Part shown: positions 9,279 through 30,748 of the stretch, in pieces
How the letters are laid out: each line of letters starts with the position of its first letter
Numbering within the stretch: position 1 is the first letter of the stretch
From: Chiloscyllium plagiosum
Lineage: Eukaryota
Reading direction: 5' to 3'
NCBI RefSeq assembly: GCF_004010195.1
Contig: NC_057744.1
Coordinates: forward strand, 14,171,839 to 14,235,838
Length of the DNA stretch: 64,000 nt
Notes under the pieces: generated by a model
Seen by the model: only the letters and a program-made list of their open reading frames with translations
The model's database searches: none
What the model was told of the DNA's origin: nothing
Position numbers and translations under genes: made by a program

Positions 9279-12200
9279 ATGTCTAAGGGACCAGCTGTTG
9301 GTATTGATCTTGGGACAACCTACTCCTGTGTAGGTGTTTTCCAGCATGGCAAAGTTGAAATTATTGCCAATGACCAAGGCAATAGAACCACTCCAAGCTA
9401 TGTTGCCTTCACTGATTCTGAAAGACTCATTGGTGATGCAGCTAAGAACCAGGTGGCAATGAACCCAACCAATACGATCTTTGGTGAGTTCTATTAAAGA
9501 AGTGACATTGATACCAGGAAGAGGTCTTTCCTATTTTGTGCTGATTCTGCAATACAAGATGCATCTTGTTTCTGATATAAAATTTTATAGTTTGGTCTGT
9601 CTCTAACCTTTTAAAGTATTGGATTTAACTTGGTTAACCTAGTTAACAATCAAGCTACTGGGTAGACATCACTCTTTTAAAACAATGCAGTCTGGGTAAC
9701 ACCATCCATTCTTTGATTCAACGCTTGCTTCTTTTAACTCCATCTATTAGGGCATTAGCACAAGTGTTGGTGTCCTTTATTACATGTGGGTGGGATTAAA
9801 GATTGGTTTATTATTAGACCCCACGTTGTGCCACCTATGTCAGCCATTATTCAATGTTTAGTACTGCTGCCTCTCAAGTCCAGGGATCCAGGCTTGATTC
9901 CAGCCTTGGCTGACTGTGCCTGTATTGAGTTTGCACATATTCCATGTCTGCATGGATTTCTTGCAGGTGCTGTGGTTTCCTGCCATGGTCAAAAAAATGA
10001 GCACATTAGATGGATTGGCTGTGCTAAAAATTGCCCTATAGTTTACAGGGATGTGCAAGTTCAGTGAGTTTGCCATGGTTTTAGGTTGCCATGCAGGATT
10101 ACAGGTATGGGGCGGGATACTCTGAAAGGGCCAGCGCATGTTGAATGGTCTCTTTCTGCACTGCAGGGATTCTATGATCAATGGATTACTGCCCAAGCTA
10201 TTATCAGCAATCCTGATATGACTTATTGCTGTGTGGGCGGAATGATTATTATTTTGTTATATGGGTGGCACAGTGGTTAGCACTGCTGCCTCACAGCACC
10301 AGAGACCTGGGTTCAATTCCCACCTCGGGCAACTGTCTGTGTGGAGTTTGCACATTATCACCGTGTCTGCGTCGGTTTCTTCCCACAGTCCAAAAATGTG
10401 CAGGTTAGGTGAATTGGCAATGCTAAGTTGCCCCATAGTGTTAGGTGAAGGGGTAAATGTAGGGGGATGGGTTTGGGTGGGTTGCTTTTCGGAGGGTCCG
10501 TGTGGACTAATTGGGTCAAAGGGCCTGTTTCCACACTAAGTGATCTATTTTAATTTCGTTTTAATCTGGCTAACGTGATTTGAATTTAATAGATGCCAAG
10601 CGCCTGATTGGACGCAGATTTGAAGACACTGTAGTTCAGGCTGATTTGAAGCACTGGCCTTTTGATGTAGTAAATGATGGCGGTCGTCCCAAGGTTAAAG
10701 TGGAATACAAGGGAGAAAACAAATCTTTTTACCCTGAAGAAATATCTTCAATGGTGCTCACAAAAATGAAAGAAATTGCAGAAGCTTACCTTGGAAAGGT
10801 GTGTAACAACTTGTGATAAACCCCACCTTGGTGTTGCTTTTCCTGGCCACTTCTTCTAAACCTAATTTTTTAAAAAAATATTTGCTTTGTTTCATATGGT
10901 TGAATTGAGGACTAATGATTGGAAGCAGGTGGACAGTTAAAGTGGACTTGCAATTTATAATGAATGTCTTTTAAAAATGGGATTGAGTTACATCTATACA
11001 CTGATCAGTAAATCCAAGAGTTTCTATTTTGGTCACCTGTAGACACTTGCCAAAACATGCAATGTTAGTTTTGATGATTCAGGCAAATTTTTATTTAGAC
11101 TTCTTGTAATTGCCTTTTCTTAATGTTATATCAAAAGCATTTTGTTATGGTCAAAGTGGAAGTAAAAGGGAATGCTTTGAAATCTGGCCATTCAGTTGGC
11201 AAAGAGCATATTAATGGTATTTGGGAATTGAGGTAAAGGTTCATAAGCATTGCTACGAGCTCTCGGAGCCAGAGGGTATAGGTTTGAGTCCCATAATATA
11301 CCTGAGGTGTTATAACATATCTCCCGTGTCTAGATTCTAGACTGGGAACAGTAGGGCAAGCAGTCAGTTGAGGGTCGGTTTGTCAGAAGAAAGACATCTA
11401 GTGTGGGAAGTGATATGAAAGAAGCTGAAGTTTTCTGTTTAGGGTAACTGAGGAGATTTAGAATATGAAGGATGAATAGCTTTTTAAAGCAAAGATGGCT
11501 CATTCTTAATCAGTGTCTATTACAGCTGTTAATATGTAAATAGAACACTTAACTTGAATCTCCCACCTTTTGAGTACAGTTTTTAAACATTGGATTTGTT
11601 AAGAATTATACTTCATCAAGTAATCAATAAATGAGTACTTTAGGGAAATTAAGAACAGCTAAGTAGGTTGGGTGTAACTTGAGGTAGAAAATGAACATCA
11701 ATAAATAGGCTGTGTAGAAAGCAGTTGGTAATGGAATAGGGATGCAAGGTTCCACAATGTTTGTGCTCATGAAAGTGCTTTCATCACACAAATGAACCAA
11801 CCTTAAGTTATGAATGGCAATATTTTAAAGAATTAGTTTGTCATGTACAGAAGTACATGTGTACAATGTTGCCATTACTGGATCCATCTTGGGAACAAAG
11901 ATACTTAGGTTTAAAAAAAAATCTTGGGTACAATGTAGGAAAATAAAGTAACATTAACTTCCTACTTTTAGGATAGTACAGGCTAAAGATTCATTCAAGC
12001 ACTTAAACAGAAGCAAACTTCCCAAATGAGAGAATGTCATTGGTAAAATATTCTCACCCTTGCAGACTGTCACCAATGCTGTTATTACCGTACCTGCTTA
12101 CTTCAATGATTCTCAACGCCAAGCAACTAAGGATGCTGGAACAATTTCTGGTCTTAATGTTCTCCGTATTATTAATGAACCAACAGCTGCTGCCATTGCT

Positions 12201-30200: not shown

Positions 30201-30748
30201 AGCAACGTGAAAAAGTTGCTGCAAAGAATGCTTTGGAATCTTATGCCTTCAACATGAAGGCCACAGTTGAGGATGAGAAGCTAAAAGGCAAAGTTGGAGA
30301 TGATGATAAGCAGAAGATCTTGGACAAATGTAATGAAGTTATCAGCTGGCTAGACAAGAACCAGGTAAACTATTTAGTGGTTTATTTTTCTGACTAGAAG
30401 TTGTTTGCTATGATGAAGTAAATACCAAAACCATTCGTAGTTTCCACTAGAACTCTGCAATGGGTCATGTTAGCCAATCTTCCTTGGATGTCTGAGCGTC
30501 ACTTTTTTTTTTTGTAAGCAAGCAATATTATCTTGCTAAGTAGTATATAACTTTTTTCCTTTTTTTTTTAGACCGCTGAAAAGGATGAGTATGAGCACCA
30601 ACAGAAGGAGCTGGAAAAAATCTGTAATCCTATCATTACAAAGCTATACCAAGGAGCTGGTGGACCACCTGGGGGCTTTCCTGGTGCTGGTGGTGCTCCT
30701 TCTGGTGCTGGTGCATCATCTGGTCCAACAATTGAAGAGGTTGATTAA
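27286..30748 (+). CDS. hspa8: Heat shock cognate 70 kDa protein (HSPA8/Hsc70), copy B, 643 aa, 8 coding exons, snoRNA host
   Basis: Exons 27286-27490, 27801-28006, 28082-28234, 28728-29283, 29372-29574, 29729-29927, 30132-30364, 30572-30748 (total 1932 nt, all GT-AG). Starts [16 protein letters not shown], ends [31 protein letters not shown]. Confidence 0.97.
29969..30060 (+). ncRNA. SNORD14: U14 box C/D snoRNA in intron 7 of copy B
   Basis: C box GTGATGA 29973-29979, domain A CATTCGTAGTTTCCACCAGAA, domain B CCTTCCTTGGATGT, D box CTGA 30054-30057, 74 nt from the 3' splice site. Confidence 0.95.
30406..30498 (+). ncRNA. SNORD14: U14 box C/D snoRNA in intron 8 of copy B
   Basis: C box ATGATGA 30410-30416, CATTCGTAGTTTCCACTAGAA, CTTCCTTGGATGT, D box CTGA 30492-30495, 76 nt from the 3' splice site. 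Confidence 0.95.

Follow-up and report, generated by a model that had tools for sequence, protein, structure and literature searches.

Recurrent gene conversion as the probable source of two near-identical exons in a tandem hspa8-type gene pair of Chiloscyllium plagiosum

Two tandem hspa8-type genes

We analysed a stretch of 64,000 nucleotides (nt) of the Chiloscyllium plagiosum genome (contig NC_057744.1; G000:C35:14171839-14235838), called the window below and numbered from its first letter. It contains two intact Hsp70 genes, A and B, arranged in tandem on the same strand. Exons 5 and 7 of the two genes are nearly identical, and we consider it quite probable that recurrent DNA-level interlocus gene conversion, surviving only inside these two exons, accounts for this near-identity. 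Gene A has its coding sequence at 9279-19972 with an open frame of 645 amino acids (aa), and gene B at 27286-30748 with one of 643 aa; both proteins carry a C-terminal EEVD. Each gene has eight GT-AG coding exons, of which exons 2-8 are equal in length between A and B (205, 206, 153, 556, 203, 199 and 233 nt), placing the exon 4/5 junction after codon 188 in both genes (205+206+153 = 564 nt). Human HSPA8 is likewise described as having eight coding exons, with one intron falling between codons 188 and 189 (PMC2266713). All four exons scanned, including gene A exons 3 and 8, match PF00012. The introns of gene B are short (75-493 nt), and those of gene A are longer (474-2568 nt). Over the first 585 residues the two proteins differ at 27 positions, none of which lies in exons 5 or 7.

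The two genes differ in their associated elements. Gene B carries two copies of the small nucleolar RNA SNORD14, in introns 7 and 8, while gene A gave no Rfam match to SNORD14 at E<=1 and contains no alignable remnant of it. Mouse Hspa8 is reported as the Snord14 host (PMC5454292). Since B hosts SNORD14 and A does not, gene A is best called an hspa8 paralog. Gene B has also left processed retrocopies in the genome, six with an exon-exon junction and two 3' fragments. None was found for gene A, and a query with exon 9 and the 3' untranslated region (UTR) of A returned two matches, A and B themselves. Vertebrate HSPA8/HSC70 is described as combining an intronic SNORD14 with many retrocopies, as in gene B and unlike gene A (PMC2266713, PMC5454292). 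Of the two, B, with its SNORD14 copies and detectable retrocopies, resembles an ancestral housekeeping gene, and A, with neither, a derived copy. Besides two long retrocopies of B on C13 and C15, described below, six 3' fragments covering exons 8-9 and the 3' UTR lie on C28, C15, C17, C1 and C32 (L031-L037, L041, L045, L047).

Both promoters contain heat shock element (HSE)-like GAAnnTTC units, four in A (window 7380-7600) and two in B (25840-25870), in promoters that cannot be aligned with each other. The end of gene A exon 1 is joined to position 9274 in a contig of a related species (a loose end).

No third hspa8 copy was found within 30 kb on either side or among the best-scored candidates of a genome search. 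Human and zebrafish are reported to have a single gene at the hspa8 locus, and a tandem hspa8a.1/hspa8a.2 pair is reported from one teleost, the spotted seabass (PMC8646100).

Exon-by-exon divergence between A and B

An earlier reading of this DNA, made from its letters alone (the sequence-only reading), had described patchy identity between the two genes. Its counts for exons 2, 4, 5, 6 and 7 were reproduced. From exon 2 to exon 8, A and B differ at 16/205, 43/206, 22/153, 1/556, 40/203, 2/199 and 40/233 nucleotides, the exon 5 difference being ACA versus ACC; exon 9, whose alignment needs gaps, was excluded from these counts. At fourfold-degenerate sites the corresponding differences are 6/32, 14/25, 16/28, 1/87, 19/38, 1/29 and 6/15. 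Exon 6 had been noted to differ mostly at third positions, and its differences comprise 34 synonymous codons and 2 amino-acid changes. Third-position differences are strongly heterogeneous over the seven exons (chi-square p=9e-29), and the longest run of identity between A and B, 107 codons, was reached by 0 of 20,000 shuffles (shuffle maximum 52).

Exons 3, 4, 6 and 8 are 14-21% diverged and mutually homogeneous (p=0.50). Exon 2 is less diverged than these (p=2.5e-5) and more diverged than exons 5 and 7 together (p=1e-6), which do not differ from each other (p=0.17). There are thus three divergence classes, with exons 5 and 7 recent, exon 2 older and the rest unconverted, rather than an exon-by-exon series of ages. 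The proposal of conversions of different ages therefore holds for exon 2 against exons 5 and 7, and fails where it gave each exon an age of its own. Exon 4, which had been counted among the converted exons, was wrongly placed there: its third positions are as diverged as those of exons 3, 6 and 8 (p=0.64), and partial conversion of exon 4 was rejected on the same ground. We also rejected micro-conversions in exons 6 and 8, where the longest identical run of 29 nt is within chance (p=0.26), and a short-tract patchwork in exon 2, where the differences are evenly spread (p=0.42).

Outside the coding exons no similarity remains. In all eight intron pairs, the 3' UTRs and the promoter with exon 1, alignment of A to B is at shuffle level, the observed score being reached by 40-92 of 100 shuffles; the introns had been called unalignable before, and they are. 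The identity extends only a few nucleotides into the introns, 11 nt before and 4 nt after exon 5, and 4 nt before and 5 nt after exon 7. These flanks exist as first described, and one of them is informative. Donor flanks of 5-6 nt are also common to A and B after exon 2 and after the unconverted exons 4, 6 and 8, so the gtaa and gtgaa donor flanks were rejected as evidence for conversion, and only the 11-nt acceptor flank of exon 5 is informative; a match of this length is beyond chance (~1.5e-4 to 2.5e-3 over 8 acceptors).

These borders bear on the nature of the template. Spliced or partly spliced RNA of the highly expressed gene B, or its cDNA, could have served as a germ-line repair template that overwrote single exons of gene A, one by one, over a very long time. 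The tracts do end at or within a few nucleotides of exon borders, the shared sequence is B-like, and the retrocopies of B, with none found for A, show that its mRNA is reverse-transcribed in the germ line. A spliced template, however, cannot supply the 11-nt intronic flank, all eight introns are kept in both genes, and exons 8 and 9, which cDNA would cover most often, are unconverted; the same borders are also expected of DNA conversion between genes with unalignable introns. We consider RNA templating improbable. A DNA template is favoured by one 11-nt flank, the absence of intron loss and the absence of a 3' bias, in agreement with the preference of the sequence-only reading.

Table 1 Features of the gene pair, in window coordinates
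Feature	Position	Strand	Remarks
Gene A promoter and non-coding exon 1	7380..7723	+	HSE-like GAAnnTTC at 7394, 7560, 7575, 7580; donor GT 7724; start approximate
Gene A exon 2 with start codon at 9279; older conversion inferred with B	9274..9483	+	16/205 differences; fourfold 6/32
Gene A exon 3, unconverted	10593..10798	+	43/206; PF00012
Gene A exon 4, unconverted	12066..12218	+	22/153; fourfold 16/28; p=0.64 vs exons 3/6/8
Gene A homogenised tract: exon 5 (13463-14018) with 11 and 4 nt of flanking intron	13452..14022	+	570/571 identical to 28717-29287
Gene A exon 6, unconverted, flanked by both homogenised exons	14493..14695	+	40/203; 34 synonymous codon differences and 2 amino-acid changes
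Gene A exon 7, homogenised	17264..17462	+	2/199; assembly only
Gene A exon 8, unconverted	17971..18203	+	40/233; 11 non-synonymous codons; PF00012
Gene A exon 9, EEVD-stop end	19790..19972	+	
Gene B promoter and non-coding exon 1	25840..25959	+	HSE-like units at 25846, 25851; 72 raw RNA reads; start approximate
Gene B exon 2, ATG 27286	27281..27490	+	
Gene B exon 3	27801..28006	+	
Gene B exon 4	28082..28234	+	
Gene B exon-5 homogenised tract (exon 28728-29283)	28717..29287	+	
Gene B exon 6	29372..29574	+	
Gene B exon 7, homogenised	29729..29927	+	
SNORD14 (U14) snoRNA, gene B intron 7	29968..30061	+	RF00016, 65.6 bits, above the gathering score of 64
Gene B exon 8	30132..30364	+	
Second SNORD14 copy, gene B intron 8	30405..30499	+	RF00016, 59.7 bits (under gathering score), E 1.5e-10
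Gene B exon 9, EEVD-stop end	30572..30748	+	

Retrocopies, independent reads and a related species

Two of the retrocopies of gene B are long processed pseudogenes, one on C13 (L014, G000:C13:18260700-18262420) and one on C15 (L015, G000:C15:66346896-66347840), which are intronless across exon junctions and interrupted by insertions. At sites in exons 3-8 where A and B differ, the C13 copy matches B at 81 of 110 and A at 19 of 110, and the C15 copy matches B at 59 of 80 and A at 12 of 80. Since both side with B at these sites, the retrocopies are younger than the duplication that produced A and B. With five other hsp70 genes as root, B groups with the retrocopies in a tree of exons 3, 4, 6 and 8 (100%), which does not include an older copy on C30 (L016). 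The two retrocopies share 8 non-synonymous and 19 synonymous differences. Since their flanks gave only short dispersed hits, which we read as repeats, we provisionally treated the two copies as independent.

The retrocopies record what happened to each exon after they formed. In the unconverted exons their fourfold sites show 35/158 differences from B against 84/158 from A, and in exons 5 and 7 they show 37/139 from either gene. This latter rate is above the 0-fold baseline (96/632; p=0.001, and similar without CpG sites), like that of B's unconverted exons (p=0.42) and unlike that of A's (p=4e-6). At sites where the two retrocopies share a letter that differs synonymously from B, A has the letter of B in 7 of 7 cases in exons 5 and 7 versus 2 of 12 in exons 6 and 8 (p=0.0007); removal of CpG sites leaves 6/6 versus 2/10 (p=0.007). 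Silent changes thus arose in exons 5 and 7 after the retrocopies had formed, and A carries them too, indicating interlocus gene conversion rather than silent-site constraint.

The absence of any exchange was weighed against the same sites. On this view, strong constraint on the nucleotides themselves, from splicing, RNA structure or an overlapping element, would have preserved the ancestral letters of both exons in A and in B. In its favour, the protein encoded by exons 5 and 7 is invariant, and a tree with distant outgroups fails to place A with B against the retrocopies. Yet the silent sites of exons 5 and 7 have changed at an ordinary rate since the retrocopies (0.27 versus 0.22 at fourfold sites), with the changes present in both genes, the third positions of exon 5 differ by 0.49-0.61 from the genome's other hsp70 genes, like those of other exons, and Rfam gives no match in the exons. 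We consider constraint without exchange extremely unlikely. Rooted exon-class trees and site counts that use the genome's other hsp70 genes were dropped as a discriminator, being saturated.

A further alternative is that the identity arose in the assembly or its polishing, with the reads of one gene overwriting exons 5 and 7 of the other. Mis-mapped reads would give just such near-perfect, exon-confined identity, and our read check reached neither exon 7 nor the 3'-terminal 430 nt of exon 5. For this check, four of 24 listed sequencing runs were compared with window 9200-13588. Run X1, which bears the same organism label, shows 13 differences from the window in 2964 bases and is therefore probably from another individual. 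Its contig extends from exon 3 of gene A (3A) through intron 4A and ends at 13481, 30 nt inside the shared tract that begins at 13452; position 13481 is the branch point expected of a 31-mer graph if A and B share the tract. The word length of that assembly is assumed to be 31 letters, as in the index. In the raw RNA run X21, 152 reads with 78 starts span the junction of exon 4A with exon 5. In a related species (run X15) the contig of the exon 4A-exon 5 junction also ends, 26 nt into exon 5, and four DNA runs contain 94-95% of the sampled words of 13300-14800. Moreover, at each of the three sites in exons 5 and 7 that still differ between A and B, a retrocopy carries the letter of one of them, twice that of B and once that of A. 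These observations support the start of exon 5 as assembled being genuine, with no collapse, and make an artefact very unlikely. Run X16 (organism C) contributed only 14 short pieces and was set aside.

Both genes are transcribed, as the 152 junction reads of exon 4A and a further 72 raw RNA reads carrying gene B exon 1 upstream of exon 2 show. In the related species, expression of A and B is similar by contig depth (1193 vs 922 in exon 2). At window 10766, 341 RNA reads of X21 end in a poly-A run at an A-rich spot inside exon 3A, probably through internal oligo-dT priming.

Run X15 differs from the window at 110/2360 intron positions and 6/364 positions of exons 3 and 4, and we therefore regard it as a related species, in which exon 2 occurs in an A-type and a B-type form (0 and 9 differing letters in ~120 nt). 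Exon 5 differs less between the paralogs (1/556) than exons 3 and 4 do between the species (6/364; p=0.017), so that its homogenisation is probably younger than the split, in a comparison that draws on six substitutions in exons 3 and 4 and does without the related species' own exon-5 differences. For exon 7, paralog divergence and the species split are not distinguishable (p=0.42). In units of the split (Jukes-Cantor (JC) intron distance 0.048), and mixing intron and fourfold rates over few sites, the estimated ages are ~18 for the duplication, ~6.6 for the retrocopies, ~4.5 for exon 2, ~0.7 for exon 7 and ~0.2 for exon 5. The old duplication with exon-confined conversion proposed by the sequence-only reading is thus supported by independent reads, by the retrocopies and by the related species.

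The indistinguishable ages of exons 5 and 7 (p=0.17, above) would also fit a single recent long-tract event with patchy repair that homogenised both together. Against this, 3.2 kb in A and 0.45 kb in B separate the two exons, an interval made up of introns that do not align and an exon that is 20% diverged, and exon 2 shows a separate, earlier event. Mismatch-repair rejection disfavours recombination between strongly diverged sequences, and a first-time exchange between ~20%-diverged exons is unlikely. We consider a single event unlikely; it is a variant of recurrent conversion and compatible with it, so that the two are not exclusive.

Origin and meaning of the exon mosaic

How recurrent conversion could have produced three classes of exon may be pictured as follows. 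After the old duplication (~18 times the depth of the species split), the introns would have diverged and left exon-sized islands of homology. Double-strand-break repair between copies 12-15 kb apart (15.3 kb from A to B for exon 5, 12.5 kb for exon 7) would then pair inside a nearly identical island, and the tract would halt at the intron heterology. Each event would reset identity and keep the exon convertible, in a feedback. Exons 3, 4, 6 and 8 may have drifted beyond the divergence that recombination tolerates and so escaped, with exon 2 escaping later, at ~4-5 times the split depth. Since A and B have the same amino acids throughout exons 5 and 7, selection would not oppose their copying. 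The DNA template is favoured since the 11-nt flank is shared, introns are retained and the 3' exons are unconverted, and flanks in parental order fit conversion rather than a single unequal crossover. As the shared exons are B-like, either B was the donor or the homogenisation of exons 5 and 7 has been unbroken. A review by Fawcett and Innan describes conversion as ending when divergence and indels build up (PMC3924837).

Several points weigh against this account. The rooted tree of exons 5 and 7 contains no (A,B) clade, its outgroups joining at the node between A and B (39%). In both trees the retrocopies sit on a common branch (80-85%; 80% for exons 5 and 7) and could be partly dependent on each other, and counts of sites that use the other hsp70 genes as outgroups are saturated. 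The read-level check ends 126 nt into exon 5, the remainder and exon 7 standing on the assembly, and the exon-5 date has the narrow basis given with it. Direction and recurrence of conversion we infer. Exon 6, no shorter than exon 7 and with only two amino-acid differences, nevertheless escaped, for which chance is the model's sole account.

Comparable cases are known in part. Conversion among Hsp70 paralogs is reported in mammals, nematodes and molluscs (PMC8423806). The mammalian HSPA1A/HSPA1B genes (and HSPA1L) are likewise tandem cytosolic Hsp70s of old duplication, kept alike by conversion and purifying selection; these are described as intronless, stress-inducible and converted over most of their length, whereas A and B are intron-bearing, HSC70-type and converted exon by exon (PMC5865164). 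The tandem HMA4 paralogues of Arabidopsis halleri also show interlocus conversion at rates varying within the gene, and mosaic divergence with long introns escaping, in young copies (<=~6% intron divergence) whose short introns still convert (bioRxiv 10.1101/2025.10.29.685298). In the present pair, by contrast, even the 75-88-nt introns of B are unalignable, and neighbouring exons are 100-fold apart in divergence. Exon-scale tracts between old vertebrate tandem paralogs are likewise described for salamander Nav1.1/1.2/1.3 and Nav1.4 exon 26a/b, where they were inferred on coding alignments and tied to adaptive toxin resistance, while the A/B tracts carry no amino-acid difference (PMC8476164). 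The primate red and green opsins, tandem genes ~24 kb apart, form a similar mosaic of converted and unconverted parts in mirror image, with homogenised introns and a diverging selected exon (PMC3924837).

Elsewhere in the genome, G000:C37:34.33-34.49 Mb (L003-L005, L008, L039) holds a cluster of at least 4-5 intronless hsp70 genes on both strands, two of which, C37a and C37c, differ by ~0.02 in the region equivalent to exons 5 and 7 versus ~0.13 elsewhere, a possible second case of patchy conversion. Two other hsp70 coding sequences are split unlike the hspa8 pattern, one by a ~19 kb gap (G000:C10:1155423-1176238) and one by gaps of ~13 kb and 3 kb (C27:14901737-14919036). Exon 7 of other species was sought in a metagenome, where four contigs held one intron-bearing hsp70 with a different intron pattern; it was not used. 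Around the pair, a Pfam scan of 150 of the 206 non-repeat open reading frames in the window and 30 kb on each side found no neighbouring genes for synteny with the human locus. The pair is flanked by dense, mutually similar LINE fragments at window 300-5500 and 35400-63700 (Pfam endonuclease and reverse transcriptase), and intron 2 of gene A holds SINE copies. An open frame of 392 aa that weakly matches GIY-YIG (L027:2103-3278, minus strand; E 9e-5) is probably a transposon, possibly of the Penelope type.

Literature searches, mostly without subscription papers and without supplements, found no published report on this locus. It is a new case of a known process, gene conversion, with no new mechanism or function. 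One practical consequence is that primers, probes, read counts and trees from exon 5 or 7 cannot separate A from B. Hess et al. 2018 describe conversion as a feature of inducible Hsp70s, with constitutive ones being typical birth-and-death genes (PMC5865164); the A/B pair is a counter-example to birth-and-death without conversion for constitutive Hsp70s. More broadly, the pair is a clean natural record of concerted evolution ending, in which conversion persists in some exons and ceased long ago in one, while four have escaped it, and in which B's own retrocopies serve as dated fossils. With related genomes, it could yield the tract length and the divergence at which conversion stops in the vertebrate germ line.

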